Notes: generated by a model not told the origin, from the letters alone. Counted from the first letter of the stretch, positions 1,910 to 64,000 are shown. The stretch: 64,000 nt of DNA from an uncultured Akkermansia sp. (GCA_947626635.1 CANQSY010000001.1:592-64591), one strand, 5' to 3'. Numbers and translations: made by a program.

Positions 1910-2310
1910 GCAACCGCATTCAAAAATGCGGTTGCCTATTTACGATTTACGATCTCAGGGAATTCGCGCGCCGGTGGCGCGGGGTTGCAAAGTCGCCGAG
2001 GGAGCGAAGGCGGATTGGACAAAAGCGCAGCTTTTGCCCGCAGGGCGCTGGGCGCCTAACGGCGCCTATTTACGAATTTGCCACCTCTAAAAACTACCAA
2101 GGTGAAAAACGAGAGAAAAAAAGTTGAGGAGAAAGGAGTCAAAAAAGGGAAAAATGGGAGAATTTTGAGGGGAAAACATGGGAAAAATGTCCGAGAGGAT
2201 ACGCACCATCGTTTGCCCGCTATCTAAAAAAACGAGTTTTTAGAGGTACCAGAATTACGAATTACGATTTACGATGTGGAAAATTCGAGCGCTCCGCGCG
2301 GGAAGGAAGG
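1910..2310 (+). repeat. Modular palindromic repeat array, locus 1 (interrupted by a MITE-like insert)
   Basis: Hairpin GCAACCGCATT-CAAA-AATGCGGTTGC then CTATTTACGATTTACGA; module GGACAAAAGC-GCA-GCTTTTGCCC; second core at 2067; heptamers resume at about 2252. Confidence 0.85.
2083..2247. mobile_element. Putative MITE-like non-autonomous element (165 bp)
   Basis: Perfect 13-bp terminal inverted repeats ACCTCTAAAAACT (2083-2095) and AGTTTTTAGAGGT (2235-2247) around a purine-rich non-coding interior; splits a heptamer run; no clear target-site duplication. Confidence 0.45.
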
Positions 2311-2559
2311 ATATAGTATACTTTGAACTTCTTGGCACCCTTTTTTGTGCCAAAAAACTGTCGCATTTAATTTTGCGATCCACAGTTGACGCTCGGAGAA
2401 GGTAATGTGCTTGCCTTTTCGAGCAGCGGAGGTAGAATGGTGTTGGGTGTCGTGGTTCATGGTGTCTCTATTTTTTGGACGAAGTTAATATAGTATACTT
2501 TGAACTTCTTGGCACCCCTTTTTTGTGCCAAGAAACTGTCGCATTTAATTTTGCGATCC
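2311..2559. repeat. Near-identical 71-72 bp direct repeat (2311-2381 and 2488-2559)
   Basis: ATATAGTATACTTTGAACTTCTTGGCACCC..TTTTTGTGCCAA..AAACTGTCGCATTTAATTTTGCGATCC occurs twice with only 1-2 differences. Confidence 0.9.
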
Positions 2560-2588
2560 CCATCCACGCCTCCACGCGCGAAAGACTG

Positions 2589-2617
2589 TTGACAGCCTCT
2601 ATTTCGCGTGGTTTAAT
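2589..2617 (+). promoter_or_regulatory. Sigma70-type promoter of the DUF805 gene
   Basis: TTGACA-17bp-TTTAAT. Confidence 0.6.
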
Positions 2618-2640
2618 GTTCTGGGAACCAAGTAACGGAC

Positions 2641-3258
2641 ATGAATGCAAATCCTATACCGGCTTCTGATTTCATCGCCAATGTCAAGTACGGCTTCAAG
2701 CATTTCTTGACCTTTAGAGGACGCTCCACTCGTCCACAATTCTGGTGGTATTTCCTGGCATTATGTATCATCGACACTGTTTTCAAGACAATAGGCAATC
2801 TGTGTGCCGGCACGATCGATATCGATTTGAAAGAATTGGACACCACTACTGACATATTACAGACTTTATGGTCACAGCTGCCGCTCGGCCTCATTATTAT
2901 AACTATCGCCCAACTCGTCATCGGTATCATTCTTTCCATCTCGCTACTTGCTGCAACAGTTCGTCGTTTGCACGATGCCGGTCACTCCGCCTCCTTAGCC
3001 TACATCAACATGATTTTGTACATCATCATGTACGCCGGCTTCTTCGCTATGTTACTCAGTTTGTACAAGATCCTTCCTGTGATCGCTTCCTATCCTCAGC
3101 AAGGGCAAGAATCGTCTGCTATCGCGTTCTTCGCAGGTTGTTGCGCCGGTCTTGCCCTCATCGGGGCAGCCGCACTGATCCTATCGATCATCGTGCTGGT
3201 GTTCTTACTCAAGCCGAGTGAACCTCGTGATAATCGATACGGACCCTTCGTCAATTAA
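2641..3258 (+). CDS. DUF805 family inner membrane protein (YhaH/YhaI-like)
   Basis: N-terminal FRGRSTRPQFWW and ATVRRLHDAGHS motifs, C-terminal PRDNRYGP, 3-4 hydrophobic helices. Confidence 0.9.
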   Translation: MNANPIPASDFIANVKYGFKHFLTFRGRSTRPQFWWYFLALCIIDTVFKTIGNLCAGTIDIDLKELDTTTDILQTLWSQLPLGLIIITIAQLVIGIILSISLLAATVRRLHDAGHSASLAYINMILYIIMYAGFFAMLLSLYKILPVIASYPQQGQESSAIAFFAGCCAGLALIGAAALILSIIVLVFLLKPSEPRDNRYGPFVN

Positions 3259-3346
3259 CGACGACGTATCAACCTTTGAGGGCTTCTCGATGTCCGGTAT
3301 CCAACCCGGTCTTGAATTCATCGAGGAGCCCTCAAATGTTTCGGGC

Positions 3347-3374
3347 TTGCATGCCGGCGAGATAGGAGTATAAT
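3347..3374 (+). promoter_or_regulatory. Sigma70-type promoter of the SurA/PpiD-like gene
   Basis: TTGCAT-16bp-TATAAT. Confidence 0.55.
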
Positions 3375-3407
3375 AGACGCGCGCAACATAGAGAGCAAAA
3401 CGTCGCC

Positions 3408-5171
3408 ATGACTATCCTCGAATTCATTCGGAAAAATTCCCTTTTGGTCATCATCGTCATTGCAGCGGTGGGAGCCGGACTTGTGATGATGGACTACAGC
3501 GGGAAAGGCAGTGCATTTTCCAGAGACTTTTACATACGGGTAAACAATACCAGCTACGACTACCCCGAGACCGCCAATATGGGAGAGAACGGGAAGCAAT
3601 TCCTCTCTTCACTCTACTCGGCCACGCGCGACCTTATCGAACCCCTTGCCGAGGAGAATGCATCGGCCAGTGAGGAGCAAAAGCAAGAGGCCTTCATAGA
3701 ATGGCAGAGGCAACATCCCGACGTGGTTGAATCGCTCAATATGCTCAACGAGGTCTATGCCGGTTGGCATTACGGGGGGACACGGGATGACGCCGTGAAC
3801 GTGGCGATCAACCGTGCCATGTTGCATGCGGAAGCGGATGCTTGGGGACTGCATCCTTCCGAGGAACAGATTGATCTCTTTTTGCGGAGCTTACCGGCAT
3901 TTCGCACGGAGGATGGCGCCTTCAACACCGAGCTGTACCGTCGACTCGCGGGCTACCGGCATGGGCATAGCAACCGCGTGCAGGAAGAGGCCTTCCGCGC
4001 GGTGGTGGCGGACATCATCATCTGGGAGAATCTGCGGGCGATGTTAGGGAAAGGCGTAAGTTTCCAAACCGGGGCACAAACGGCCATGCTGAATGCGTTT
4101 GAGCAGAGCGTGACGGGACGGACGGCTTGGCTGGCGGCTGAAAAAGTGGGAACTCCTCCCGATCCCGGCGAGGAAGAATTAAAGGCGTACTGGGAGGAGC
4201 ACCGCAATCAGTACATGAGCGACGAGCGCAGGATTGTATCTGTTTACACCCTCTCCCCCGCTGCGGACAGCAACATGGAGAATCTGCTTTCCACCGCCGA
4301 TATGCTCATGCAGGATCTTTCCCTGGCGAACGGGCGAGGGCTGGACAAGTTGCTGGCCGATGCGCAGGACAACCCGGAATACGACGCCTTTACCTACCAA
4401 GCAGCGGACGGTAGCACACACGTCACCTACCCACTGAGTACGGAGGAGGAGCTTGAAAAGCAGCTGCAGGACCGGGTGAATTACGAAGGCAAGGAAGTGC
4501 CGCTAGCCCAGGTTGCTTTTGCGGAGATTGAGCAGGCACCGACACCGCAGGCTTACGAGGAGGCTCAAGCAGCAGGGAATGCGGAGAAGGAGCTGAGCAT
4601 CCGGCAAATCCGCGGGTTCTACAACGCAGCCGATGGCAAGTTGAAGCTCCTGCGCATTGAGGCCGTGGAGCGTCCGACGCCTCTGCCGTACGAGCAAGCG
4701 CGGGAGAAGGCTCTGGCGGATTTTCGTCGCGAGCGTGAGGCAAATGCCCTGCAGATTGCAGCAGAAAAAATCTACAAGGATATGCAAGAGGCCCTGACGA
4801 CACAGGGACTGCAAAGCGCCCTCGCCATAGCACAGAAAGCGGGAGCGCTCGTGGAGGATTTCGGTCCCGTCCAGCTATTCCGACCGACCTCTGTACTGCC
4901 CTCCGGCGTATCGGATGCCGACATCATGGGGACCCCGAGCGGAAAGATGACGCCCTTGGTGGTGCAGCCGACCGGCGCGCGCTTCACCTGTATTACCGGG
5001 CGAACCGTAGAGGACAGTCCGTCCATCACCATGCAGAAGCGGTTGTTCGAACTGCCGCGGCTCAACGCTCAGCTGCGCCACAGCATGATGCAGGAGTGGC
5101 AGAATGCAGCCTACAACCGCTTTGACGTCCAGCTCGCTCCCACGATCCGGACCATGGAGAAGGAGGACTAA
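3408..5171 (+). CDS. Membrane-anchored SurA N-terminal domain/PpiD-like periplasmic chaperone
   Basis: 587 aa; PpiD-like N-terminal anchor MTILEFIRKNSLLVIIVI; EELKAYWEEHRNQYMSDERRIVS and PLPYEQAREKA segments typical of PpiD. Confidence 0.7.
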   Translation: MTILEFIRKNSLLVIIVIAAVGAGLVMMDYSGKGSAFSRDFYIRVNNTSYDYPETANMGENGKQFLSSLYSATRDLIEPLAEENASASEEQKQEAFIEWQRQHPDVVESLNMLNEVYAGWHYGGTRDDAVNVAINRAMLHAEADAWGLHPSEEQIDLFLRSLPAFRTEDGAFNTELYRRLAGYRHGHSNRVQEEAFRAVVADIIIWENLRAMLGKGVSFQTGAQTAMLNAFEQSVTGRTAWLAAEKVGTPPDPGEEELKAYWEEHRNQYMSDERRIVSVYTLSPAADSNMENLLSTADMLMQDLSLANGRGLDKLLADAQDNPEYDAFTYQAADGSTHVTYPLSTEEELEKQLQDRVNYEGKEVPLAQVAFAEIEQAPTPQAYEEAQAAGNAEKELSIRQIRGFYNAADGKLKLLRIEAVERPTPLPYEQAREKALADFRREREANALQIAAEKIYKDMQEALTTQGLQSALAIAQKAGALVEDFGPVQLFRPTSVLPSGVSDADIMGTPSGKMTPLVVQPTGARFTCITGRTVEDSPSITMQKRLFELPRLNAQLRHSMMQEWQNAAYNRFDVQLAPTIRTMEKED

Positions 5172-5185
5172 CCGTCGCGACGACC

Positions 5186-6829
5186 ATGGCTTTCCCACCA
5201 CAGACGAAATACATTGTGGGAAATGAGGCGTGCGAGCGCTTCAGCTTTTACGGCATGCGCAGCATCCTCACGCTGTATATGCTCAGCGTGCTGTCCATGG
5301 GCGAGAGCGAGGTCGTCACGGTAGGACATTTATTCAACGCGGGCATCTACGTACTCCCGCTTGTGGGGGCGTGGCTGGCGGATCGTTTCATCGGACGCTA
5401 CCGGATGATCCTCTATGTTTCGCTCTTCTACTGTTTGGGGCATGGGATTCTGGCCACGGCGGATCTGGCCGGGAGCATTGAGATACGGCGGTGGATTCTC
5501 TTCGCGGGCTTGTTCATTATTGCTCTCGGAGCGGGAGGCATCAAACCCTGTGTCTCGGCCTTCGTCGGCGACCAGGCTGACGAGAGCGACAGCCAAACGA
5601 TGACCCGACTCTACGCTGCCTTTTATTGGTCCATTAACCTCGGTTCGTTCTTCTCTTTCCTCATTATCCCATGGGTACGGCAAAATTGGGGGTACAGCTG
5701 GGCCTTTGCCATACCGGGTATCTTCATGGCCCTTGCCACGTTGATCTTCTGGAGAGGGAGGCGCCTGTACCGTCATCGCAAGCCGTCGCAGCCCGACTTC
5801 CTGCCCTCGCTCCGGCTATGGCTGACGCATGGACGCAAGTCGGTCGAGCAACAATTCGGCGGCGAGACCCTGAAAGAAACCCGGCAGACGCTGCACGCCG
5901 TTGCGCGCTTCATCATCCTGCTCATCGCCGTGATTGCGGTGTTGGTGGCTGTATCGACAGGAACATCGCACCTAGTGCGACTGTGGGGAGTCAGCGATCA
6001 GGGAGCATCTCTGTGGAGTCTGCTGGCATGTGCGGTAACGTTGTGCTGTCTCTCCCTGCTCGTCCTGCGGACAGCAGCGGCGCGAAAAACCGATTCCTTT
6101 TTGGGCATCTTCGGCACTCGCCTCTTTTACGGATCGGAGCAAACCGACCGGAGCTACTCTGCCGGCCGCATCGCGGAAGCGCACGGACTCCTGCGCGTGT
6201 TGACGGTCTTTCTCATGATCATCCCCTTCTGGAGTTTGTTTGACCAGACGATGACCAGCTGGGTGCTTCAAGGGGAAAAGATGAGCCCCGTGGTACTTTC
6301 GCAAGCCAGTGGTCTACGCTTTGTCTTTGGGGCGGAGGAGATGCAGAGCATCAATCCGCTGTTTGTGATGGTGCTTGTTCCCGTCGTCACGCTGCTCATC
6401 TACCCGCATATCGGGCGCTGGGCCTCGCCGCTGCGTCGCATGGGCTGCGGCATCACACTCGCCGGTATTTCCTATCTCTCTGTCGCCTCCCTCCAATACC
6501 TCATCGACTCGGGTTCACAACTCTCTATCCTGTGGCAGTGCATCCCGTACCTCCTGCTTACTGTTTCGGAAATACTCGTCAGCACCACGGGCTTGGAATA
6601 TGCGTACACAGCGGCGGGACACAACCTTAAGAGCATCGTATCCGGCTTCTGGTTCCTGACGAGCACGCTGGGCAACTTCCTCGTCATTTACCTCACGCAT
6701 CTCGTCTCCGATCCCGCCTCCACCTCTACCTTCCTCCTCTACGCGGCCATGAGCATTTCCATAGGCTGCATCTTCCTCCGGGTCACCTCACGAAGCTTCT
6801 TCAGGGTAACACCCGATGAAAGCCGGTGA
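5186..6829 (+). CDS. POT/PTR family proton-dependent oligopeptide transporter (MFS)
   Basis: EACERFSFYG (ExxERFxYY) motif, GAWLADRFIGR, GGIKPCVSAFVGDQ, FYWSINLGS. Confidence 0.93.
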   Translation: MAFPPQTKYIVGNEACERFSFYGMRSILTLYMLSVLSMGESEVVTVGHLFNAGIYVLPLVGAWLADRFIGRYRMILYVSLFYCLGHGILATADLAGSIEIRRWILFAGLFIIALGAGGIKPCVSAFVGDQADESDSQTMTRLYAAFYWSINLGSFFSFLIIPWVRQNWGYSWAFAIPGIFMALATLIFWRGRRLYRHRKPSQPDFLPSLRLWLTHGRKSVEQQFGGETLKETRQTLHAVARFIILLIAVIAVLVAVSTGTSHLVRLWGVSDQGASLWSLLACAVTLCCLSLLVLRTAAARKTDSFLGIFGTRLFYGSEQTDRSYSAGRIAEAHGLLRVLTVFLMIIPFWSLFDQTMTSWVLQGEKMSPVVLSQASGLRFVFGAEEMQSINPLFVMVLVPVVTLLIYPHIGRWASPLRRMGCGITLAGISYLSVASLQYLIDSGSQLSILWQCIPYLLLTVSEILVSTTGLEYAYTAAGHNLKSIVSGFWFLTSTLGNFLVIYLTHLVSDPASTSTFLLYAAMSISIGCIFLRVTSRSFFRVTPDESR

Positions 6830-6838
6830 GGTAGGAAC

Positions 6839-9814: not shown

Positions 9815-9865
9815 ACTCCTGGAATGAGTCTTTCTACTCTATACGTGAAAATAACCAACAATCTT

Positions 9866-11437: not shown

Positions 11438-11441
11438 GAGC

Positions 11442-13387: not shown

Positions 13388-13405
13388 CTCGTTCCTCTCT
13401 CTCCA

Positions 13406-13543: not shown

Positions 13544-13747
13544 ACCCTTTCATTCAACCCCAGAATGGCAAAAAAATCAAGCCTTATTTGCTCCACGACA
13601 GCTTAGAAAGGTTCGTGGTAACACGATGCCTTCGTGCTAACCGTGCTTCCTTCGTCCATAGAAAACGCCTGGGATATGGATTGAATAAGCCCGGAGAAGA
13701 ATTTTTTATTGGGACGCGTGAGCTTCAGCGCGTCGTTGGCTCGTCCA

Positions 13748-14865: not shown

Positions 14866-14968
14866 GGGCGGAAGAGAAAAACGTTGGAAGCAGCAGTGCG
14901 ACGGATCAGCGACCTACCACGGTTCACCGTTGCGGCGTCCCCCTCGTCTGAGGGGTTCCTTCGCCGAA

Positions 14969-16264: not shown

Positions 16265-16363
16265 GCATTTTAATTGCAGTCACTTCGAAGTGCACACGTG
16301 TCCCAAGAAAAGGCGAGCACACGAACGATCATCGCAGTTTCAAACAGCATAACACATTGGTTG

Positions 16364-16505
16364 TTTATGATTGACGATATAGTGAATTCACGCACCGCTG
16401 GCGAGGGATGCCAAGCAAATGCTAAGCGGAATTTCCATGGTCAACGGTGATATCAGCCCACATGGGCACTTTCTCCGTTGATGAACTTCTTTTAAATGCG
16501 TTTGC
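16364..16505 (+). repeat. Eroded copy of the modular repeat family
   Basis: Degenerate heptamers TTTATGATTGACGATAT, then GAATTCACGCACCGCTGGCG..GCCAAGC..AAGCGGAATTTCC.TGGTCAACGGTGAT; 16470-16505 matches the reverse complement of 43289-43324 (21 bp exact). Confidence 0.7.
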
Positions 16506-20258: not shown

Positions 20259-20413
20259 GCAAACGCAAAGCGTTTGCTTATTTACGATTGATAAGACTGC
20301 CGACGGCAGTCAGGCAGGTTAGCCGAAAGCGCAGCTTTTGCCCCTAAGGCGCTGAGTCAATGCGGTACCGACGAGTCAATCAACGTCAATCGTAAATAGG
20401 CGACGTAGTCGCC
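20259..20413. repeat. Fold-back repeat element: two inverted cores around a palindromic module
   Basis: TATTTACGATTGA (20279-20291) and TCAATCGTAAATA (20386-20398), each with an outer hairpin; internal GACTGCC-GAC-GGCAGTC and AAAGC-GCA-GCTTT. Confidence 0.85.
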
Positions 20414-25009: not shown

Positions 25010-25036
25010 CTCAAAATATTTCCCCGCGCGCCCATG

Positions 25037-25331
25037 GGCGCCTGAGGCGCCTATTTACGATTTTCGACATACGATTTACGATTTGGGATGCTAGCGCGCC
25101 AAAGGCGCGGGATATGCGATGCAAAAGCATTGGTGGTGGGATCAATCATGGCGGAATGTTATGAGGAAAGCGGCCGGGCGCCTTCGGCGCCTATTTACGA
25201 TTTTCGATTTACGAATTACGATTTCAGGAAATTCGCGCGCGAAGCGCGTTCCAGCGGAGCGATAGCGCAGCGGAATTTTCGAGAACAATGGTAATGGATA
25301 GCTAGAAAGGCGAAGGCGCCTATTTACGATT
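25037..25331 (+). repeat. Modular palindromic repeat array (3 cores) between divergent lysS and the ABC operon
   Basis: Cores at 25052, 25192, 25321; modules GGGATGCTAGCGCGCCAAAGGCGCG.. and GAAATTCGCGCGCGAAGCGCG..GCGGAATTTTC. Confidence 0.92.
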
Positions 25332-25373
25332 GGCGATGTGGAATGCGGGCGTTGACGGTCAAAAAAAATGCAC

Positions 25374-33726: not shown

Positions 33727-33956
33727 GCTATTTTCCGTAACAAACTAACAATAATCGTTTTCTAACTTAATAGTTAGTTAAAAAAGTGAGAGAAAAGCTC
33801 GTGAAGAAGGCAGAAATGAGCATAAAAAAAAGAAGCGCGCGATTTCTTTCTACTTGACAATTACCCGAAAAGGTAGTTACATAGCGCGCCAACATATTAG
33901 GCGGCTAGCCCCGTCCGAGTGAAGGCAGAAGTTTCAATAACCGTTTAACAAGCAAT

Positions 33957-34061
33957 ATGGGATCCCTGAAGAAGAGACGTAAGGCGAAGATCAACAAACA
34001 CAAGCGCAGTAAGCGCATGCGTCAAAATCGTCACAAGAAACGTTTGCGTTACAAGTCCTAA
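33957..34061 (+). CDS. Small basic ribosomal protein bS22/mS38-like (AURKAIP1/COX24 domain), 34 aa
   Basis: Manual translation MGSLKKRRKAKINKHKRSKRMRQNRHKKRLRYKS matches the family pattern MGSxxKKRRKxMxKHKxRK; TTGACA upstream; below the ORF-track cutoff. Confidence 0.85.
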   Translation: MGSLKKRRKAKINKHKRSKRMRQNRHKKRLRYKS

Positions 34062-34063
34062 AT

Positions 34064-34717
34064 CCCGGCAACGCCGGGCGGCGTTCCGCCGCCTATTTAC
34101 GATTTTCGATTTACGATTTACGATTTCAGGGAATTCGCGCACCGGAGGCGCGTTCCTACCGAGCAGTAGCGAAGCGGAATTCTTGAAATGTTGGTGCGGT
34201 GATAGGAGGAAAGCGCCGGGCGCCTTCGGCGCCTATTTACGATTTTCGATTTTCGAATTACAAGACTGCCGGCGGCTGCAAGGCAGGTTGGACAAAAGCG
34301 CAGCTTTTGCCCGAAGGGCAAAGCGTCAAGGCGGTCGACGGCCCCGTGTAGGGCGCACGCGTAGCGGGTGGTAAGACCGATTGGACAACGCGTGAGCGTT
34401 GCCCGTAGGGCTCAGCGCCGATGCGGCGGCGCTGAGTCAATGGGGCGGCGCTGAGTCAATTTCAGGGAATTCGCGCGCGGAGCGCGTTCCAGCCGAGCAG
34501 CAGCATAGCGGAATTCTTGAAATGTTGGTGCGGTGATTGGAGGAAAGCGCTGGGCGCCTTCGGCGCCTATTTACGATTTTCGATTTACGATTTCAGGAAA
34601 TTCGCGCGCGAAGCGCGGGATATGCTAAGCAGTAGCGAAGCGGAATTTTCAGGGTCAACGGTAATGAATAGCTAGAAAGGTGCCGGGCGCCGGGAGCCGG
34701 GAGCCTTCGGCGCCTAT
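34064..34717 (+). repeat. Largest modular palindromic repeat array (about 650 bp), ending in the hicB stop codon
   Basis: Cores at 34094, 34234, 34568 and a truncated one at about 34715; multiple hairpin modules. Confidence 0.93.
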
Positions 34718-35088
34718 ACGAGGACGACGGCGTGCTTGGCTAACGCATCGCGCAATTTTTCGGCCTCGCCGGCGCGGAAGGGCGTACCATTGCGAATACG
34801 AGCGTTGAGCGTGCGCGGCTCTATTCCGAGCAATCGAGCAACCTCCGTTTTATTGAGTACTTTGCTGGCTTTCTTCAGCGTGGATATATCAGGCGTAGGC
34901 GGAACAAAAGACGCATTGACTCCAAGCTCTGCTTCGAGGTAGCAGGCGATCGCTTCGTTGATTTCACGCAAGGCTTCCTCCTGTGTTTCACCGTGAGCGG
35001 AGCACCCGGGAAGTACCGGAACAGTGGCAACCCAGATTTCATCGTCCGAGTCCCAATCCAGTTTGATCGGATAGTGATATGCTTTCAT
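34714..35088 (-). CDS. hicB: HicB family antitoxin with C-terminal HTH
   Basis: WVATVPVLPGCSAHGETQEEALREINEAI; HTH-like NKTEVARLLGIEPRTL; start MKAYHY. Confidence 0.9.
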   Translation of the reverse strand: MKAYHYPIKLDWDSDDEIWVATVPVLPGCSAHGETQEEALREINEAIACYLEAELGVNASFVPPTPDISTLKKASKVLNKTEVARLLGIEPRTLNARIRNGTPFRAGEAEKLRDALAKHAVVLV

Positions 35089-35092
35089 ATTT

Positions 35093-35332
35093 TTATTTCG
35101 CGTTAAAGTAGTCTCTGACTTGTTTGACTTGATAGCGTTTTGCCTTTCCATTTTCACTGACTTGTAGATTGAAGGGCTGCGAGCCTTCCTTGCGGAAGTG
35201 GTAGTGCGAGCCCCTCACTCGCTTGACGTTGTACCCACGCGACAGCAGGAATTGCGAAAGTTCCTCAAAGGTGATGTTTCCATCAGAGTTTCCATCAAGG
35301 ATTTTCTCGGCAAGTTTGGCGTGCTTTGTCAC
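35093..35332 (-). CDS. hicA: HicA family mRNA interferase toxin
   Basis: ITFEELSQFL..GY...RGSHYHF..QV...GKAKRYQVKQV; probable GTG start at 35332. Confidence 0.9.
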   Translation of the reverse strand: MTKHAKLAEKILDGNSDGNITFEELSQFLLSRGYNVKRVRGSHYHFRKEGSQPFNLQVSENGKAKRYQVKQVRDYFNAK

Positions 35333-35338
35333 GAGGAT

Positions 35339-35368
35339 ATTGTACTTTGTCTCCTTATTCCGAGTCAA
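35339..35368 (-). promoter_or_regulatory. Promoter of hicAB (probably leaderless)
   Basis: TTGACT-18bp-TACAAT, 6 nt before the GTG. Confidence 0.55.
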
Positions 35369-35417: not shown

Positions 35418-35660
35418 GGCGCCTAACGGTGACGCTTCGGTACCGCACTACCTCAGCGCCCTACGGGCAACGAATACGCGTTGTCCAATCCCCTTACATG
35501 CCTTCAGTGGCTTTTTACGATTTACGATTTCAGGGAATTCGCGCGCCGGAGGCGCGTTCCAGCCGAGCGATAGCTAAGCGGAATTCTTGAAATGTTGGTG
35601 CGGTGATAGGAGGAAAGCGCCGGGCGGCGTTCCGCCGCCTATTTTTGATTTTCGATTTGT
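35418..35660 (+). repeat. Modular repeat array on the upstream side of hicAB
   Basis: Module GACGCTTCGGTACCGCACTACCTC..GTTGTCCAATCCC, heptamers, GGGAATTCGCGCG..GCGGAATTC module, variant core CGCCTATTTTTGA. Confidence 0.9.
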
Positions 35661-35804
35661 TGATAACGTGCGCGTTGCGCAGATTTTTGGGATTGTTAAC
35701 GAATGCGGAATCTTCTTAAGAGCCATCATCATGATGACCGCTCGTTGCCATGATTTTTGATAGGCATCAACGATGATATCAATCAGCAAGAGCATTCTCT
35801 CCAT
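35574..35804 (-). CDS. Possible small orphan ORF whose 3-prime end runs into the repeat
   Basis: 76 aa, hydrophobic N-terminus, GGAAG upstream; could be a remnant or spurious. Confidence 0.25.
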   Translation of the reverse strand: MERMLLLIDIIVDAYQKSWQRAVIMMMALKKIPHSLTIPKICATRTLSTNRKSKIGGGTPPGAFLLSPHQHFKNSA

Positions 35805-42976: not shown

Positions 42977-43324
42977 GGCGGCGGGCGGCGTTCCGTTGAC
43001 GCTTCGGTACCGCACTACCTCAACGCCCTGCGGGCAACGCTTGCGCGTTGTCCAATCCCACTCCGGGCCCTCGTGGGCTTTGCCTATTTACGATTTTCGA
43101 TTTACGATTTACGATTTCAGGGAATTCGCGCGCGGCGCGCGGGGAGGCAAAGCCGGTGCGGAGCGGAATTTTTAAATGATGAAGAGGTGATAGGAGGAAA
43201 GCGCCGGGCGCCTATTGGCGCCTATTTACGATTTTCGATTTGGAAATAATGCGCGCGGAGCGCGGGGTGCGGAAGTTCCGTCCCCAGAGCAAACGCGTTT
43301 GAGAGAAGTTCATCAACGGAGAAA
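42977..43324 (+). repeat. Modular repeat array between rsfS and yoeB
   Basis: Cores at 43085 and 43223; begins immediately after the rsfS stop. Confidence 0.92.
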
Positions 43325-43345: not shown

Positions 43346-43621
43346 CTAATGCGGCTGCCCATAGTGCCCCATCATGGACAAAACTTCTACAACGCCTGCT
43401 TCCTCATTGACGCGATACACCAGCCGATCCTTCCTGTTGATCCGCCGCGACCAGCACTCCGCCAGCTCATACTTCAGCGGCTCCGGCTTCCCCCTCCCAA
43501 AGTATGGAGTCTCTGCTACTTCGCGCAGAAGCTCCTCTATTTTTTCCGCCGCCTTCCTATCCCTTTTCACCCACGCCTTCCTCTCCTTCTCCGCCTCAAG
43601 CGTCAGAATGATCTTCATCAT
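43346..43621 (-). CDS. yoeB: Txe/YoeB family toxin
   Basis: GKPEPLKY.L...WSRRI...DRLVY. Confidence 0.93.
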   Translation of the reverse strand: MMKIILTLEAEKERKAWVKRDRKAAEKIEELLREVAETPYFGRGKPEPLKYELAECWSRRINRKDRLVYRVNEEAGVVEVLSMMGHYGQPH

Positions 43622-43874
43622 AAAACATGCCCTTGTATTCAACGAGTTCTCCTCTCTTTGCCTGATCCAGCGACTTCAGCAAATGCGCCCTGTTCACCGG
43701 ATTATCCAGCAGATACCTCGTCTCCTCCTCGCTCGCCCAATCATCATACGGCACCATCACAACCTTCCTCCCGCGACTCGTAATCACCACGGGCTGACTG
43801 TCATCCACGCATTCCTTCATCAAACTCGCCAAATTCTGGCGCGCCTTACTGTAACTTACTACGGTCGGACACAT
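43596..43874 (-). CDS. yefM: Phd/YefM family antitoxin
   Basis: VSYSKARQNLA, PVVITSRG, EETRYLL..PVNRAHL..S. Confidence 0.93.
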   Translation of the reverse strand: MCPTVVSYSKARQNLASLMKECVDDSQPVVITSRGRKVVMVPYDDWASEEETRYLLDNPVNRAHLLKSLDQAKRGELVEYKGMFYDEDHSDA

Positions 43875-43885
43875 AACCCCTTTAT

Positions 43886-43904
43886 TGTACACAAAACTTG
43901 TACT
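43886..43904. promoter_or_regulatory. Putative YefM operator overlapping the promoter
   Basis: TGTACA (43886-43891) and TGTACT (43899-43904) cores; - strand TCGACA-16bp-TACAAT. Confidence 0.5.
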
Positions 43905-43934
43905 TTGTCGATCTAAAAAAATACACACACCGGG

Positions 43935-44333
43935 GCAAACGCATTTTCCAATGCGTTTGCTATTTACGATTTACGAATTACGATTTACGATTTGGGATGC
44001 TAGCGCGCCAAAGGCGCGGGATATGCTAAGCAGTAGCGAAGCGGAATTTCCGAGAGCAATGGTGATGGATAGCTAGAAAGGAGCCGGGCGGCGGGCGCCT
44101 GGGCTGCGCCTATTTACGATTACGAATTACGTTGACTCACCGCCGCCCCATCGACGGTTCGCCCTGCGGGCAAAAGCACCGCTTTTGTCCAATCCCACTC
44201 CGGGCCCTCGTGGGCTTTGCCTATTTACGATTTTCGATTTTCGAATTACGATTTCGGGGAATTCGCGCACCGGGGGCGCGTTCCAGCCGAGCGATAGCGA
44301 AGCGGAATTTTCGAGGACGAGGGGGCGGCGTTC
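43935..44333 (+). repeat. Modular repeat array on the upstream side of yefM-yoeB
   Basis: Cores at 43961, 44111, 44222; ends at a hairpin loop directly abutting the next stop codon. Confidence 0.92.
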
Positions 44334-47535: not shown

Positions 47536-47624
47536 TGTACACGCTTACCCCACCGTTTTCAAGTCCGACTTTACAAACAGGGACTACCAGTCACATCCGT
47601 CCCAAGAAAAACGAGGGCAATAAG

Positions 47625-48020
47625 GGGCGCCGGGCGCCTTCGGCGCCTATTTACGATTTTCGATTTTCGATTTACGATTTCAGGGAATTCGCGCGCGAAG
47701 CGCGGGATATGCCAGGCAGTAGCGAAGCGGAATTTTCGAGGACGAGGGGCGGTGATGAAAGGAAAGCGGCGGAGGGCCGGGCGCCTTCGGCGCCTATTTA
47801 CGATTTTCGATTTTCGAATTACGATTTGGAATGCTAGCGCGCCAAAGGCGCGGGATATGCGATGCAAGGGCATCGGTGGTGGGATCAATCATGGCGGGAT
47901 GTTATGAGGAAAGCGGCCGGGCGGCGTTCCGCCGCCTATTTACGAATTACGATTTACGAATTACGATTTGGGATGCTAGTGCGCCAAAGGCGCGGGGGAG
48001 CGGAGCGCCTCCTTGCGCTC
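47625..48020 (+). repeat. Modular repeat array (3 cores) between divergent genes
   Basis: Cores at 47648, 47795, 47937; one module nearly identical to 25081-25180. Confidence 0.92.
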
Positions 48021-48102
48021 AGAGAAATTTTATGGGGGACACGTGTGGGGACAGGTGGAAAAATGTATAGGAGGAAGGCGAAACACCGCCTGTTCATTTG
48101 GC

Positions 48103-52558: not shown

Positions 52559-52564
52559 AAAATC

Positions 52565-53937: not shown

Positions 53938-53956
53938 GGCGTTCTGGTGGTGATAT

Positions 53957-55738: not shown

Positions 55739-55780
55739 CTATGCCCCTATTCTACCACATACCGCGCCCAATGCAAGCCC

Positions 55781-55932
55781 CGGGCGCCTTCGGCGCCTAT
55801 TTACGATTTTCGATTTACGATCTACGATTTGGAATTAATGCGCGCCGGGGGCGCGTTCCAGTGGAGCGTATGCAAAGCGGAATTTTCAGGGTCAACGGTA
55901 ATGAATAGCTAGAAAGGAGCTGGGCGCCTTCG
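55781..55932 (+). repeat. Single repeat unit (core, module, half core)
   Basis: Core at 55798; ends within the next hairpin at GGGCGCCTTCG. Confidence 0.9.
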
Positions 55933-55957
55933 TTAAAAAATGCCATTTCGGGAACGC

Positions 55958-57055: not shown

Positions 57056-57057
57056 TC

Positions 57058-60000: not shown

Positions 60001-60309
60001 CGAGGCCTCAACGTGCGGAAGTTTGGGAAAGACATCGCGCAGGGCGTCGAAGCGGGTGTTGAGTGTATCGGCGTACCGGTCGAGCTGCTCCTGGGAGGCG
60101 GCGAGGATGATGCCTCGCGGCGGCATGTCGATCGGCGTGAAGCGGTGCAGGTAAGACTGCCACTCGCGGGTTTTGCCGCGCAGGAACTCCTCATCTTTTT
60201 CCATCCACTCCGCCTCTTTCTCAAGAATGCGTTTCACAACGGGACGCAACTTGCGCACTTCCCGCTGATTTTTTGATCCCACAATTTTATTGAGAATCCA
60301 CTTGATCAT
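57058..60309 (-). CDS. secA: Preprotein translocase ATPase SecA
   Basis: AEMATGEGKT, IIDEVDSILIDEAR, TNMAGRGTDI, RQLRGRCSRQGDPG; start MIKWIL. Confidence 0.97.
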   Translation of the reverse strand: MIKWILNKIVGSKNQREVRKLRPVVKRILEKEAEWMEKDEEFLRGKTREWQSYLHRFTPIDMPPRGIILAASQEQLDRYADTLNTRFDALRDVFPKLPHVEASVASIEEGKKAFVDIEPKFDKLRSKYLDAILPEAFAVVKLAARMMCGKVIDVCGTPTEWNMVHFDVQLLGGVALHRGFIAEMATGEGKTLVATLPVYLNALTGLGVHVVTVNDYLAKRDSMWMGALFNFLGLTVGCIQSLMPNDLRHEQYACDITYGTNAEFGFDYLRDNGMATTREAQVQRGHYFAIIDEVDSILIDEARTPLIISGPAVIETEQQYDKLKPIIEKVVKAQVELCNKLMTQAFDYAKEGNTEAAGRCLYKVKLGMPRNRAFMRSQQDPEFRRMVEKYELFLFQDPRKQELFRLKEELYFSVDEKTHDADLMEQGRQLISPGHPEDFVLPDIGTEFVNIDENERLSEREKEARKQALTKKLEETGIRLHTTSQLLKAYTIYERDKEYVVKEGKIIIIDQNTGREMPGRRWSEGLHQAVEAKEGVEVEEENMTYATITIQNYFRLYSRLAGMTGTAETEAAEFHDIYKLDVLPIPTNKPCIREDFNDLIFKSRREKFNAVVAKIVELHKKGQPVLVGTASVDASETLSRMLKMAKVPHEVLNAKNHQREAEIIALAGQRAAVTVSTNMAGRGTDIKLGEGVADLGGLFVLGTERYEARRIDRQLRGRCSRQGDPGASQFFLSFEDDLMRNFGGSERMTKIMDRFGMEEGEAVENRLMNKIIEGAQKRVEQRNYIWRKHVLDYDDVMNQQRTIVYAMRNDALLCEEPRIMIYEILDEAVQFKCEYYIQDEHDGTVNAESLLNWVNTAFPTGWSEKDAQLEGKTAGEAAKLICDRVREMYEKKVSGERPDYVDRMERQLMLQAIDKMWQRHINDMDALREGVRLRAQGQRDPLVEYKREAYGLFETLMQDIQLDMLSRLFRSTTNLSAFEDFLASLPVADPHNDSGGDDFLNQGDLLTSLRDQLRRLHEQEAQESSAREDSLSGALPEGAVMHEKKLSLPSRKKRLVHIKSENKQKKASDDSPVFDPQDPHPTL

Positions 60310-60361
60310 ATCGAATAGCTGTTGGTATATTCCCTCGCGAGCAGGTGTCCCCGCGCGCGTC

Positions 60362-60390
60362 ATCCTACCATAGCTCGCGCTCGTTTGCAA
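60362..60390 (-). promoter_or_regulatory. Promoter of secA
   Basis: TTGCAA-17bp-TAGGAT with TGG extension. Confidence 0.6.
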
Positions 60391-60440
60391 GGGGAATGTC
60401 GTTGCTTTACGCGTGGAGACACAAAATTCCGGGCGGGGGC

Positions 60441-60985
60441 CGGGCGCCTTCGGCGCCTATTTACGATTTTCGATTTACGATTTACGATCTCAGGGAATTC
60501 GCGCGCGAAGCGCGGGATATGCCAAGCAGTAGCGAAGCGGAATTTTCAGGGTCAACGGTAATGAATAGCTAGAAAGGAGCCGGTGGCGCCTGGGCTGCGC
60601 CTATTTACGATTTTCGATTTACGTTGACTCACCGCCGCCCCATCGACGGTTCGCCCTGCGGGCAAAAGCACCGCTTTTGTCCAATCCCCCTCCGAGCCCT
60701 CGGGGGCTTTTTACGATCTCAGGGAATTCGCGCGCGAAGCGCGGGATATGCCAAGCAGTAGCGAAGCGGAATTTTCAGGGTCAACGGTAATGAATAGCTA
60801 GAAAGGAGCCGGTGGCGCCTAGGCTGCGCCTATTTACGATTTTCGATTTACGTTGACTCACCGCCGCCCCATCGACGGTTCGCCCTGCGGGCAACGCGTG
60901 AGCGTTGTCCGCAGGGCGCTGAGGTAGTGCGGTACCGAAGCGTCAAAGCAGTAGCGAAGCGGAATTCTTGAAATGATGGTGCGTT
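60441..60985 (+). repeat. Modular repeat array containing a 229-bp-period tandem duplication
   Basis: Cores at 60458, 60602, 60831; 60481-60665 repeated at 60710-60894. Confidence 0.93.
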
Positions 60986-61006
60986 GGGGTGGTATCTCGG
61001 CATACC

Positions 61007-62260
61007 TCACCCGTTCAAACAGGCGGGGTTGAGGAGGAAATCGCGGAGGGGGAGGATGAAGATGCCGAAGGGGTCGTAGTGAGCAGCGGGCGCATCACGA
61101 GTGATGAGGACCTTTTTGAAGGAATCGCTGACGGCAAGCAGGGGGCGCTCCTCCTGTTCGCGTTTTTCACGGGTGGGAATGGAAAGAGAGGACTGGATGT
61201 AGATGCGTGAATCGCCGAGGTTGGCGACAAAATCGACCTCCACTTTTTTTCGCTCACGCGAGGCTTTACCCTTGTCCTTGTCCACTTCCACGGATCCGAC
61301 ATCCACATTGTAGCCGCGGATGAGTAGCTCGTTGTAAATCACGTTTTCCATGATGTGAGCCTCCTCCGTCTGGCGGAAATTGATGCAAGCATTGCGCAGC
61401 CCCATGTCCACAAAATAATACTTGTAGGGGGAATCAATGTAACGGTTTCCGCGGATATCGAAACGTTCAGCACGTTGGATGAGGAACGCCTCCTGCAGGA
61501 GATCGAGAAATTGCTTGATCGTGGGAGCAGAAAGATTGACGTGTTTGACACTCGCGAAGCAGTTTGCCAGCTTACGGGGGTTGAGCAGGCAGCTGATGTT
61601 TGACGCCAGGATGTTCATCAATTCGTCAAGCTCCTCCGTCTTGCGAAGTCGGTTGCGCTCGATCATGTCGCGCAGGTAGGTCTCACGGAAGAGAGAACGC
61701 AGGTATTGCATCTTCTTCCTCGGCTCATCGATGGAGAGTGTGAGCGGCATACCTCCGTAGAGGATGTACTCCTTCCATGCCTCCTCCCAGTAGCAATCCT
61801 TCACCGAATAAAACTCGGCAAAGCTCAGCGGATGCACGCGCACCTCGTCGCCGCGTCCTCGAAACTCCGTCACCACGTCACTCGACAGAAAACGCGAGTT
61901 GCTCCCCGTCACGTAGATGTCGAGATGGCGCACACGCAGCAAGCCATTGAGCACACTCTCGAAGTCCGCCATCATCTGCACCTCATCCAGCAGCAGATAG
62001 TACATCTCTTCATCACGTATTTGCGCTTTCACGTACCGGTAGCATTCCTCCGGGTCGCGGTATTTCCGCTCATCAAAATTATCCAGAGCCAAGCTGATGA
62101 TGTGGTCCTCCCTCACCCCCGACTCCAGCAAATGGCGACGAAACAACTCGAAAAGAAGATAGGATTTGCCGCAGCGCCGGACCCCGCTCACAATTTTGAT
62201 CAGCCCGTTTTCCCGTTTGGAAACAAGTTGATCGATATACTCTTTTCGTTTAATTTCCAT
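61007..62260 (-). CDS. AAA_14 ATPase with C-terminal DUF4143 domain
   Basis: GVRRCGKS, LLDEVQ, TGSNS, KYYFVDMGLRN, ENVIYNEL, EVDFV; start MEIKRK at 62260; lower GC. Confidence 0.9.
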   Translation of the reverse strand: MEIKRKEYIDQLVSKRENGLIKIVSGVRRCGKSYLLFELFRRHLLESGVREDHIISLALDNFDERKYRDPEECYRYVKAQIRDEEMYYLLLDEVQMMADFESVLNGLLRVRHLDIYVTGSNSRFLSSDVVTEFRGRGDEVRVHPLSFAEFYSVKDCYWEEAWKEYILYGGMPLTLSIDEPRKKMQYLRSLFRETYLRDMIERNRLRKTEELDELMNILASNISCLLNPRKLANCFASVKHVNLSAPTIKQFLDLLQEAFLIQRAERFDIRGNRYIDSPYKYYFVDMGLRNACINFRQTEEAHIMENVIYNELLIRGYNVDVGSVEVDKDKGKASRERKKVEVDFVANLGDSRIYIQSSLSIPTREKREQEERPLLAVSDSFKKVLITRDAPAAHYDPFGIFILPLRDFLLNPACLNG

Positions 62261-62272
62261 AGGTTTATAATT

Positions 62273-62318
62273 TTCTATTTTACACAATGCGGGAATTCCC
62301 GCGAAGTGTAAAATAGAA
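62273..62318. promoter_or_regulatory. 46-bp interrupted palindrome in the leader/promoter of the DUF4143 ATPase
   Basis: TTCTATTTTACAC-AAT-GCGGGAATTCCCGC-GAA-GTGTAAAATAGAA. Confidence 0.6.
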
Positions 62319-62341
62319 TATACGCAAAAGCCTCCCTTTTG

Positions 62342-62405
62342 GCAAGACAATTCACTTGCTATTTACGGGGCGCCGGGCGCCTTCGGCGCCTATTTACGAT
62401 TTACC
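62342..62405 (+). repeat. Minimal repeat array (2 cores) between the DUF4143 ATPase and the gltA stop
   Basis: GCAAG..CTTGC-TATTTACG (62360) and GGCGCC-TTC-GGCGCC-TATTTACGATTTAC (62391). Confidence 0.85.
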
Positions 62406-63543
62406 TCATGTCCAGCATGGGAACGAGGAGGGGCTCATTGGTCCCCACGTAGCGGGAGAGCGGACGGAAGAGGGTGTTGTCCTCCAACTGCTCGAGGATT
62501 TGCGCGACCCAGCCAGCGACGCGAGCGATGGCGAAGACGGTGGTGAACATCCGGGTGGGGATGCCTAGGCTGTAGTAAACGGTGGCGGAATAGAAATCGA
62601 CGTTGGCGTTGAGATTTTTTCGGTCGCGCAGGATTTTGGCAATCATGTCGCTCATGCGGATCCACTTGGGTTCGCCGATGGTTTGGGTGAGGCGGATGGC
62701 GATGCGGCGCAGCTGCGGCGCGCGCGGATCGAGAGTCTTGTACACGCGGTGTCCGATGCCGAAGATTTTCTCGTGGTTCGCGAGTTTCTCATTGATGTAC
62801 GCCTCCACGTTGGACTCTTCCCCGATCTCCTTGAGCATCTCGATCACCGCTTCATTGGCGCCGCCGTGCAGCGGTCCCTTGAGGGTGCCGATGGCAGAGG
62901 TGATGCAGGAATACATGTCCGACAGGGTGGAGGCCGTCACTCGGGAGGAGAAGGTAGAGGCGTTCATCCCGTGGTCAGCGTGCAGAATGTACGCCACGTC
63001 CAGGATATGCGCCTCGCCCGGGTCCGGCTCCTTCCCCTTCAACAGCCAGAGGAAATGCGCCGCCTCGTCGAGATCCGTGCGGATGGGCGGCAGGTCCAAC
63101 CCCTGGCAGGTGCGGTAGTAATAGGCCGCCATCACCGGCAACTTGGCGATGAGCGACAGCCCGATCTCCTTCATCTGCGTCGGGTCCTTTGTCCGGTCGT
63201 CGTACATGCCGAGCATGGAGACCGCCGTGCGCAGCGCGCTCATGGGACGCGCCGTCTTAGTGGCGGTCTTGAAGAAATCCAGAATCGGCTGCGGCAGCTC
63301 GCGATCCGTGCGCAATCTCTGCTGCAGACCCATGAGTTCTTGTCGATTCGGCAGCCTCTTGTTGAGCAGGAGATAGATGATCTCCCCGTAGGAACAGAGA
63401 TCCACCAAATCCTCAATATCGTACCCGCAGTAAAGCAAACGTCCCTCCTCACCCCGCACATCGCTGAGCCGTGTTTCATTCGCTACAATGCCTTTGAGCC
63501 CTTTGCTGTAGATTGGTTGAGGCGCGTCGCTGTCGGGTGTCAT
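62401..63543 (-). CDS. gltA: Citrate synthase
   Basis: YSKGLKG, LHADHGMNAST, GPLHGGANE, GIGHRVYK, NVDFYS; start MTPDSD. Confidence 0.96.
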   Translation of the reverse strand: MTPDSDAPQPIYSKGLKGIVANETRLSDVRGEEGRLLYCGYDIEDLVDLCSYGEIIYLLLNKRLPNRQELMGLQQRLRTDRELPQPILDFFKTATKTARPMSALRTAVSMLGMYDDRTKDPTQMKEIGLSLIAKLPVMAAYYYRTCQGLDLPPIRTDLDEAAHFLWLLKGKEPDPGEAHILDVAYILHADHGMNASTFSSRVTASTLSDMYSCITSAIGTLKGPLHGGANEAVIEMLKEIGEESNVEAYINEKLANHEKIFGIGHRVYKTLDPRAPQLRRIAIRLTQTIGEPKWIRMSDMIAKILRDRKNLNANVDFYSATVYYSLGIPTRMFTTVFAIARVAGWVAQILEQLEDNTLFRPLSRYVGTNEPLLVPMLDMR

Positions 63544-63630
63544 CTTCTCGTTCAGGGGGTGGAGGGTTCGTTTCCGTCGGTGAAGCGTCGTGACGCATCG
63601 ACGGAGCTCCCGCATCGTTGCGGCTTGCGT

Positions 63631-63659
63631 ACTGTAGCGTAAAATCGGCCCTCTGTCAA
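63631..63659 (-). promoter_or_regulatory. Promoter of gltA
   Basis: TTGACA-17bp-TACAGT. Confidence 0.65.
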
Positions 63660-63725
63660 CACATCCGTCCCAAGAAAAAACACCCCCAATAAGTGGTTAA
63701 CGGCGTATCACGCAGCATAAGTTGT

Positions 63726-64000
63726 TGATTATTTACGAATTACGATTTCAGGGAATTCGCGCGCGAAGCGCGGGATATGCCAAGCAGTAGCGAAGCGGAA
63801 TTTTCGGGAGCAATGGTGATAGTAGCTAGAAAGGGAAGAGGAAGAAGAGCCGGGCTGCGCCTATTTACGATTTACGATTTACGATTTGGGATGCTAGCGC
63901 GCCAGTGGCGCGGGGGAGCAAAGCCGCCGATGGATCGGAGGCCGATTGGATAAAAGCGCGGCTTTTGTCCAGCCTTCCTCCCCCGTCCGCACCTGCTTGA
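63726..64000 (+). repeat. Modular repeat array running to the window end
   Basis: Cores at 63730 and 63862; GGGAATTCGCGCGCGAAGCGCG module; GGATAAAAGC-GCG-GCTTTTGTCC module. Confidence 0.9.

Follow-up and report, generated by a model that had tools for sequence, protein, structure and literature searches.

Repeat arrays of a rabbit-gut Akkermansia genome as probable mosaics of nested mobile elements

The intergenic palindromic repeats that run through a 64,000-nucleotide stretch of an uncultured Akkermansia sp. (GCA_947626635.1, CANQSY010000001.1:592-64591; hereafter the window) are probably mosaics, built by several non-autonomous mobile elements that inserted into and recombined with one another. 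The window corresponds to C1:592-64591 of the draft assembly G000 (2.16 Mb in 155 contigs, 56% GC, rated 98.8% complete), and its proteins have their closest relatives in Akkermansia. A preliminary description of the sequence had recognized a constant core alternating with shuffled hairpin modules and had taken the whole for one repeat family. The repeats are real, and the mosaics have been active recently, but they do not make up a single family: they comprise at least four nested element types, the four that we told apart by reading about 60 loci in full. Two of these are transposon derivatives with terminal inverted repeats (TIRs) and, in at least some copies, target duplications, one of which has its parent, an insertion sequence (IS) of the IS5 family, in the same genome.

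Core, units and nested elements

With at most one mismatch, the window contains 47 copies of the core, CTATTTACGA, compared to 1.49 expected, and none of 100 shuffled sequences reached this number; 46 of the 47 copies lie on the + strand. The genome-wide search proposed earlier returned 261 exact copies, and the 9-mer TATTTACGA is present 306 times, grouped in 207 loci of which 203 are intergenic according to crude gene calls. In the window, 12 arrays with a core or near-core cover about 4.4 kb (6.9%) and are accompanied by two degenerate relics, in good agreement with the roughly 14 loci and 6% reported before. BLAST searches with these arrays detected at least 58 kb of related sequence in about 319 loci, corresponding to 2.7% of the genome; since 16 contig ends consist of heptamer tracts, the true repeat content is higher. 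A mask based on 12-mer copy number marked 15.7% of the window and was not used because it is too permissive inside genes. An assembly artefact was rejected, as independent contigs from other samples (L105, L106, L112, L119 and L120) match the arrays base for base, which also indicates that the arrays are stable in the short term.

Each core is located directly 3′ of a base-paired hairpin of varying sequence and directly 5′ of heptamers of the TTTACGA type. Of the 306 copies, 206 have a perfect stem of 5 bp or more that ends exactly at the core, and 216 have one that ends within three bases of it, whereas only 4.5% of random positions have such a stem within three bases. We counted 41 distinct stem arms, which fall into three main classes (GGCGCC, GGCGG(C/T)G and GGCAAACGC(ATT)); thus, the pairing is conserved and the sequence is not. 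The core is followed by one to five heptamers, most commonly four, and runs of 8-11 are reached at contig ends; the main variants are TTTACGA (672), ATTACGA (120), TTTTCGA (90) and TTGACGA (23). All eleven core-to-core distances quoted in the preliminary description (130, 140, 129, 140, 138, 150, 111, 147, 142, 144 and 132 bp) were reproduced, and the period of about 140 bp extends to the whole genome: the distances between 96 pairs of cores at most 400 bp apart have their mode at 140-149 bp (27 pairs). Secondary modes at about 222-235 and 252 bp correspond to spacings that include a D element (see below).

The sequence between two cores is typically a unit of about 140 bp, consisting of a head (GGGAATTC, GGTAACTC, GGATGCTA or GAAATAAT), a GCGCGC-loop-GCGCGC hairpin, one of two middles (GGATATGCGATGCAAGAGCATCGGTGGTGGGATCAATCATGGCGG or TTCCAGCGGAGCCGGTGCGGAGCGGAATTT) and one of several tails that end in ...GGAAAGCG or ...TAGAAAGG and are followed by the next hairpin. 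The previously outlined modules B, C, D and D′ were confirmed. Because heads and middles combine in all possible ways across the genome, the chimeric module noted at 43990-44080, which indeed joins a C head to a B middle and tail, is one of many such recombinants. When whole core-plus-B/C (K-B/C) units were folded as single-stranded DNA, they were no more stable than shuffled sequences (z = -0.2 to -1.1), which led us to abandon the notion that each unit forms one large RNA or DNA structure; short local hairpins follow one another along it instead.

Element D, about 85-113 nt long, is somewhat more stable than its shuffles when folded in the same way (z = -2.1 to -2.6). It reads AA(A/G)(G/A)C, hairpin 1, TTGGACAA-hairpin 2-GCCC, hairpin 3 and TCAA, and hairpin 1 shows compensatory variants (CCCAC..GTGGG, CCGCC..GGCGG and CTGCC..GGCAG). 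We found 88 copies in both orientations, many of them inside heptamer tracts as TTAC|D|TTTACGA and others within B units after ...GC. Where a reversed D abuts the 12-mer GCCTATTTACGA, it supplies the third hairpin class in front of the core.

Core, heptamer tract and B/C units are also found inside a larger element, here called T-MITE as a miniature inverted-repeat transposable element (MITE), with TIRs of the form CACAYSYGTCCC(A/C)A(G/T)AAAA. About 100 ends in the genome fit the pattern CA(C/T)..GTCCC.A.AAA, and 17 TIR pairs bound complete copies with a size of 73-537 bp. A 9-bp target duplication is perfect in 4 of these 17 copies and agrees in at least eight of the nine bases in 6. The left arm leads directly into TTATTTACGA and heptamers, either by way of an arm of about 70 nt or by a short arm and a hairpin, while the right arm comes after a B head or other modules. 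No transposase-like open reading frame (ORF) lies between the TIR pairs of G000; only two pairs of ends are more than 700 bp apart, and these enclose a DAHP synthase-like and a prepilin-like gene, one of them with a poor end match.

The second TIR-bounded element belongs to the IS5 family. Its full-length form of 1321 bp (G000:C22:17801-19121) has a 17-bp TIR pair, sits in a heptamer tract and encodes a transposase that scores 245.9 bits with NF033581 (cut-off 140). Ten MITE derivatives of 172-181 bp accompany it. Perfect 5-bp duplications flank 10 of the 11 copies, and 9 of the 11 are located in heptamer tracts, where the duplicated sequence is GAATT, GATTT, GAGTT or a complement of these; at the two other sites it is GATCC and TATTC. 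In a core-free species, a heptamer-like tract (TCGTATCTCGTATTTCGTA) and an IS5-TIR-like sequence (GAGTTTTTAGAGA) were seen near, and downstream of, a Y1 transposase gene (L098, G002:C60).

In the reading that we prefer, T-MITE would seed new loci by DDE-type cut-and-paste or copying, most likely with a transposase that acts in trans and is encoded outside the available assemblies. Homologous, unequal recombination between direct copies would then multiply or remove the units of about 140 bp and exchange their heads, middles and tails, a process expected to produce both the period and the chimeras. The three-hairpin element D may insert in either direction, between heptamers or into B units, and its central palindrome could serve as a breakpoint. 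Finally, the IS5-family IS and its 173-bp MITE would prefer the heptamer tract as a target, where they duplicate the 5-bp sequence GAWTT.

Differences between strains and species

Same-species contigs from other samples, found by exact-protein look-ups, provided a compared strain (samples ERZ27249295 and ERZ27249300) with about 99.2-99.7% identity over about 62 kb. All six structural differences to this strain lie in or at arrays, five of them inside an array and one in an adjacent hicA-like ORF. A block of 475 bp at 34073-34547, consisting of two units, D and D′, is missing in one strain contig (L107); the 109-bp direct repeat at its borders is what unequal recombination predicts. Another contig (L118) carries a 173-bp MITE in the heptamer tract at position ~63876, with GATTT duplicated, and in a third (L110) a 173-bp MITE and an extra C/B unit stand at ~44121 in place of the window's reversed D; two IS5-MITE insertions are polymorphic between strains. 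In L118, 69 bp of other sequence also replace 60489-60888, with the junction inside the central palindrome of D. In L110, the hicA-like ORF has lost 98 bp (~35214-35312) and contains 116 bp in their place, comprising a hairpin, a core and about ten heptamers. The sixth difference is a 56-kb contig (L111) which joins the array at 47931 to sequence found elsewhere in the assembly (G000:C68:5716-11705), either by a rearrangement through the repeats or by a chimeric assembly join.

In the base-by-base alignment of L107 (13662-34181), the indels listed outside arrays are 1-2 bp long, and three of 2-4 bp lie inside the array at ~34150; the arrays at 20278-20402 and 25044-25332 are collinear and free of indels. 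The other strain contigs break only at the sites of array differences. Thus, the arrays vary between orthologous loci of near-identical strains, by gains and losses of units, insertions and a hairpin-centred chimera. Together with the free combination of heads, middles and tails, this bears out the earlier suspicion of active shuffling, for which homologous recombination is the probable mechanism.

A scan of species-representative genomes placed nearly all core matches in metagenome-assembled genomes (MAGs) of rabbit Akkermansia ("Lapin" bins). With the 19-mer core pattern, for which about four matches are expected by chance in this collection, single-contig matches were also labelled Fimbriimonadaceae, Pyrinomonadaceae, Bacteroidota and a rabbit Oscillospiraceae bin (L006, L012, L017, L026 and L086); the Oscillospiraceae-bin match sits at a contig end and may represent a mis-binned Akkermansia contig. 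Among 121 Akkermansia species, the 12-mer is abundant in only three, all from rabbit gut (G000, 216 copies; G068, 151; G132, 186). Four others have 3-8 copies, and the remaining 114 show at most two core matches, which is the chance level. The IS5 TIR is abundant in exactly the three core-rich genomes. In contrast to the high-copy core, T-MITE ends are found in 14 of the 121 species, with up to 144 copies where the core is rare, indicating that the MITE is older and gave rise to its core-bearing form more recently. D-like sequences are present in 32 of the 121 species and form tandem 114-bp arrays in two of them.

Repeats occur at the orthologous site 3′ of citrate synthase in all three species compared there, with differing build and orientation. 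In a sister species (L009, 5230-5290), a T left end and a hairpin are followed by TATGGACGA(TGGACGA)n, a variant tract that takes the place of TTTACGA.

Strand polarity and the search for an enzyme

The cores on one contig nearly always point in the same direction (27:1 on C1; 12:0, 11:0 and 0:8 on others). Neighbouring core loci are co-oriented in 87 cases versus 21, whatever their distance up to more than 40 kb, and the arrays are built head-to-tail, with only three loci of mixed orientation. Neither plain contig GC skew nor gene-strand bias predicts the orientation. When skews were calculated at third codon positions and the gene-strand component was removed, the core strand was the strand with A>T and C>G for 124 loci versus 44 (by contig, 42 versus 13, p = 1e-4), and the two corrected skews are anti-correlated, as a replication skew should be. 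Leading strands are usually rich in G and T, so that, under this rule, the written strand of the core would be the lagging strand. The orientation bias thus appears to follow replication direction, through either strand-specific insertion or selection after insertion. The same bias is seen in T left ends (23:8), B heads (69:22) and C heads (30:10); it is weak in D, and the IS5 MITE has none (4:6). G068 looks similarly polar (14 of 17 adjacent pairs among the matches listed).

Several of our observations weigh against a DDE-type origin of the arrays. Eleven of the 17 complete T-MITEs have no clear target duplication, and a T left end lies at most 160 bp upstream in only 18 of the 207 core loci, with a T end downstream in 32. 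As most arrays lack visible TIRs, their ends have either decayed or been recombined away, or core units have spread by another route as well. An autonomous T element was not found in the seven carrier genomes, where PF01609 detected only the IS5 element and PF00872 nothing. The hairpin-core-heptamer block in the hicA-like ORF of L110 has neither TIR nor duplication and is not explained by a simple DDE insertion. Since DDE transposons usually insert both ways, the strong polarity requires an extra assumption; G132 shows no polarity (9 of 18 adjacent pairs among the matches listed), and the link between strand skew and replication direction is an assumption.

A single-strand, hairpin-directed route would explain both the TIR-less loci and the polarity. 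The hairpin-core unit and D might be moved as folded single strands by a Y1 enzyme at the replication fork, in the manner of repetitive extragenic palindromes (REPs) and their REP-associated tyrosine transposases (RAYTs) or of IS200/IS605, with an enzyme that was lost recently or is unsampled in the draft genomes. The orientation of IS200/IS605 elements is said to have been linked to replication by Ton-Hoang and colleagues in 2010, and the core orientation is tied to a replication-like skew. A further point in favour is the hairpin of variable sequence and conserved pairing that abuts a fixed motif; the block in the hicA-like ORF also fits. IS608 is flanked by TTAC and ends in TCAA, and the same tetranucleotides surround about 27 of the 88 D copies (TTAC|D...TCAA|), although within heptamers a 5-bp duplication would look the same as no duplication, and D occurs in other contexts too. 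On the complement, the repeat reads (TCGTAAA)n-TAG followed by a GC-rich palindrome, resembling REPs made of GTAG and a palindrome (PMC3733652). Di Nocera et al. (PMC3733652) define the superfamilies of REPs through their GTAG or CGTC tags; the conserved flank here is ...AAATAG on the complement, i.e. ATAG, which shares three of four bases with GTAG but is neither tag.

The search for the enzyme argues against such a route. PF01797, the Y1/RAYT profile, has no match at E <= 0.1 in G000 and the six other carrier genomes, four of these seven being at least 95% complete, and no TnpB (PF07282) exceeds the cut-off in any of them. The controls for PF01797 were positive, and Y1 genes are present in 67 of the 121 species, all of them among the 114 without the core. 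Thus, the statement that the window has no RAYT holds for the genome as well. The copies are direct and do not form inverted REPIN pairs, and the core is physically part of an element with TIRs and, in some copies, a target duplication. Taken together, we regard transposition by a Y1 enzyme as unlikely. In two of the other species (L099, G003:C68:21500-25500, and L100, G001:C8), a 184-aa Y1 (RAYT-like) gene is bracketed by inverted repeats of 97 nt, and a D-like element, itself flanked by two direct repeats of 56 nt, follows about 160 bp downstream; this arrangement would speak for the Y1 route.

Other sources of a transposase were also considered. No IS256-type transposase (PF00872) was found in the seven carriers, and the DDE_Tnp_1 (PF01609) genes there either belong to the IS5 element or lack T ends. 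The genes between inverted cores, where a transposase might have been hidden, are housekeeping genes, and the multi-copy proteins of the genome are phage, outer-membrane and ATPase proteins plus an integrase that is not tied to the repeats. No ORF was found inside the arrays and no cognate transposase for the main elements, in line with their earlier designation as non-autonomous. No Rfam family reached its gathering score in the window, and over 33900-35000 none matched even at E <= 1; a viral contig collection and two scans of Joint Genome Institute (JGI) metagenomes gave no matches. In the literature we found no earlier description of native Akkermansia repeats, papers on Akkermansia with REP or MITE being concerned with PCR typing or unrelated matters. 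The suggestion that the family is undescribed has therefore stood up.

A movement of the hairpin-core-heptamer unit that is replication-coupled and hairpin-directed, and that would do without Y1 or any other HUH enzyme, is also conceivable. The arrays would then be polar landing pads which capture accessory genes, for example toxin-antitoxin pairs and ATPases, and shelter IS5, a scheme that we consider rather improbable.

The polarity could alternatively reflect a service to the host. As cis elements, the arrays might act as weak terminators or insulators against head-on transcription, as promoter-like tracts or as RNA-stabilizing hairpins, with selection shaping their spread and orientation. 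The intergenic location of 203 of the 207 loci and the chromosome-wide polarity are compatible with this, as is the enrichment of minority-orientation loci just 3′ of co-oriented gene ends (18/46 vs 28/125, p = 0.034). In two other species, the unit at the 3′ end of citrate synthase is in terminator orientation, and four heptamers set TTTACG and TACGAT 17 bp apart, a promoter-like spacing. However, a terminator scan calls no core site, the tail of the hairpin having too few T, and only about one quarter of the loci are in a terminator position. Whole units fold no better than shuffles and match no Rfam family, and the differences between near-identical strains, one of which disrupts a gene, are the behaviour of selfish DNA. 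We therefore hold a host function to be quite unlikely as the explanation of the arrays.

The arrays along the window and their significance

Arrays and relics are on the + strand, except where stated otherwise, and the hicAB, yoeB / yefM and AAA_14 genes between them on the - strand. Array 1 (1907..2300) starts with a long hairpin (GGCAACCGCATT..AATGCGGTTGCC), followed by core and heptamers, a B head, a partial D and a second hairpin and core at 2050-2075; its 3′ part consists of the IS5-derived MITE, further heptamers and a B-like head, and its cores lie at 1936 and 2066. The 173-bp MITE (2079..2251, equal to C1:2670-2842; no strand assigned) has the TIRs TGCCACCTCTAAAAACT / AGTTTTTAGAGGTACCA, lies inside a heptamer tract and is flanked by the 5-bp target duplication GAATT at 2074-2078 and 2252-2256. 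The adjoining region at 153-1860 contains a possible defence pair: an AAA_21/AbiEii-like ATPase gene (769-1860, -) and, upstream of this gene and overlapping it, an ORF with a lower GC content. On its other side, a unit of about 75 bp (ATATAGTATACTTTGAACTTCTTGGCACCC..TTTGTGCCAA..CTGTCGCATTTAATTTTGCGATCCACA) is present twice (2311-2381 and 2488-2559); it represents a separate repeat family, whose 13-mers occur on average about 16 times in the genome (both strands counted), and lies upstream of a DUF805 gene.

The two relics are a T-MITE right end (...GGAGAAGAATTTTTTATTGGGACGCGTGAG) at 13635..13715 and, at 16293..16470, a degenerate T-MITE left end (CACACGTGTCCCAAGAAAA) followed by remnants of core and heptamers (TTGTTTATGATTGACGAT) and of a B unit. 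A fold-back locus (20259..20413, no strand assigned) contains a + strand hairpin and core, a D-like element and then a - strand core and hairpin, the only reversed core in the window. The three-core array at 25020..25345 has its cores at 25051, 25191 and 25320, separated by a C unit (140 bp) and a B unit (129 bp).

The array at 34065..34700 has the order K-B-K-D-D′-B-K-B. Between it and the next array at 35418..35660, which consists of a reversed D, heptamers, a B unit and a hairpin with a decayed core (CTATTTTTGATTTTCGA), lie hicB (34714-35157) and the hicA-like ORF of 91 aa (35093-35368). After this decayed core follows a conserved module (35640-35800; TTGATAA..GCAGATTTTTG..TTAACGAATGC.GAATCTTCTTAAGAGCCATCATCATGATGACC..GTTGCCATGATTTTTGATAGG) that also comes after the cores at C3:23711, C13:20544, C16:29037 and C22:6491 and contains, on the - strand, an 11-codon ORF (MATSGHHDDGS). 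A yoeB / yefM toxin-antitoxin pair (43346..43928) is likewise located between two arrays. The first of them (42978..43290) shows a reversed D′ directly next to a core, then a B unit, the next core at a distance of 138 bp and a head of the GAAATAAT type; the second (43930..44320) contains a long hairpin and core, the chimeric unit with C head and B middle and tail (150 bp), a core, a reversed D (111 bp), a further core and a B unit.

A complete T-MITE, bounded by the TIRs CACATCCGTCCCAAGAAAA ... TTTTATGGGGGACACGTGTG, spans 47592..48047 and encloses three cores and B and C units; Tandem Repeats Finder (TRF) reports a period of 142 bp at 47629-47996. A single unit at 55770..55932 is composed of hairpin, core, heptamers, a head of the GAATTAAT type, middle and tail. 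The array at 60420..60990 carries a 229-bp internal duplication at 60481-60894 (K-B-K-reversed D, twice), and its second reversed D is joined through hairpin 2 to the 3′ part of a forward D, an inverted chimera. An AAA_14/DUF4143 ATPase gene (61007..62350) has arrays on both sides, and the near-core with hairpin and core at 62340..62404 abuts the stop codon of citrate synthase. The last array (63660..64000) extends beyond the end of the window; it opens with a long T-MITE left arm, after which come core and heptamers, a B unit, another core and finally a C head with D. Outside the window, the genome also contains a 31-nt repeat (GTCGCCTCCTCACGGAGGCGTGAGTTGAAAC; on average about 47 occurrences of its 13-mers, both strands counted) which looks like the repeat of a type I-C CRISPR (clustered regularly interspaced short palindromic repeats) system.

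The position of hicAB, yefM-yoeB and the AAA_14 ATPase gene, each between two co-oriented arrays, raises the question of cassette capture, in which arrays would act like attC or other recombination sites and exchange accessory genes by means of a site-specific recombinase. In line with this, two other repeat-bearing species (L009 and L033) lack the AAA_14 gene at the orthologous site, another species (L063) lacks the hicAB cassette at its site, and in one strain difference the junction falls within the D palindrome. Yet most arrays flank housekeeping genes, and the approximately 200 loci are scattered rather than clustered. Homologous recombination between dispersed repeats would give the same picture. 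An integron integrase was not seen, no search having been aimed at one. A linked tyrosine recombinase had been put forward as a candidate, and such a gene does exist; the one that we examined is not associated with the repeats. Gene capture of this kind is very improbable as the origin of the arrays, which we continue to read as mosaics of nested mobile elements.

How the arrays relate to described systems can be judged from their parts. The resemblance to REPs and their mosaics (bacterial interspersed mosaic elements, BIMEs) that was proposed at the outset is apt for their appearance: like REP, BIME and REPIN sequences, they are extragenic GC-rich hairpins next to a short conserved motif (a stem within three bases of the core in 216/306), occur in hundreds of copies, form mosaics with linker modules and are targets of IS elements. 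IS1397 and ISKpn1, for example, insert into REPs. Membership in this group fails for want of a GTAG or CGTC tag and of a RAYT, and because the copies are direct; the heptamer microsatellite and the TIR-bounded carrier set the arrays apart as well. A linker library is shared with BIMEs, but the cores within an array have one orientation.

Like other MITEs, T-MITE and the 173-bp element are small, have TIRs, target duplications (9 bp, in part of the T-MITE copies, and 5 bp) and no ORF, and are present in many intergenic copies. T-MITE differs in its variable interior (73-537 bp, by gain of units of about 140 bp or of other elements), in its polarity and in that no parent was found. The BOX elements of Streptococcus pneumoniae (boxA-boxB(n)-boxC), which are not known to have a dedicated transposase either, similarly draw on a library of sub-units with variable copy number in intergenic regions, but their sequence and host are unrelated, and the freer recombination, the heptamer tract and the chromosome-wide polarity are specific to the arrays described here.

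With IS200/IS605 and palindrome-associated transposable elements (PATEs), the arrays share hairpins near the ends, an apparently replication-linked orientation and the TTAC/TCAA of many D copies; in contrast, the carriers have no TnpA (Y1) or TnpB, and D occurs in other contexts and in both orientations. The mycobacterial interspersed repetitive units (MIRUs) of Mycobacterium tuberculosis are short tandem intergenic units, too, and vary in copy number between strains. They are simple tandem repeats of tens to about 100 bp, oriented with the operon, and, unlike the arrays, do not combine hairpin modules into a mosaic within a TIR element. The arrays are thus a composite object, apparently undescribed, that belongs with the MITE, REP/BIME and BOX-like kinds.

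Since strains differ in structure mainly in their arrays, these could be used to tell strains of rabbit-gut Akkermansia apart; they also break short-read assemblies, which end in their heptamer tracts. For the organism, the repeats mean that, in a small gut commensal genome of about 2.2 Mb, about 3% of the DNA is taken up by a young nest of mobile repeats that is still changing. Within this nest, the IS5-family element offers a natural example of an IS that is specialized on a microsatellite tract borne by another mobile element. A MITE family that is strongly polar without a single-strand transposase raises the question of whether its bias comes from insertion or from selection. If a hairpin-directed mechanism were at work, the arrays would constitute a self-organizing "repeat ecosystem" and a new kind of strand-specific mobility.

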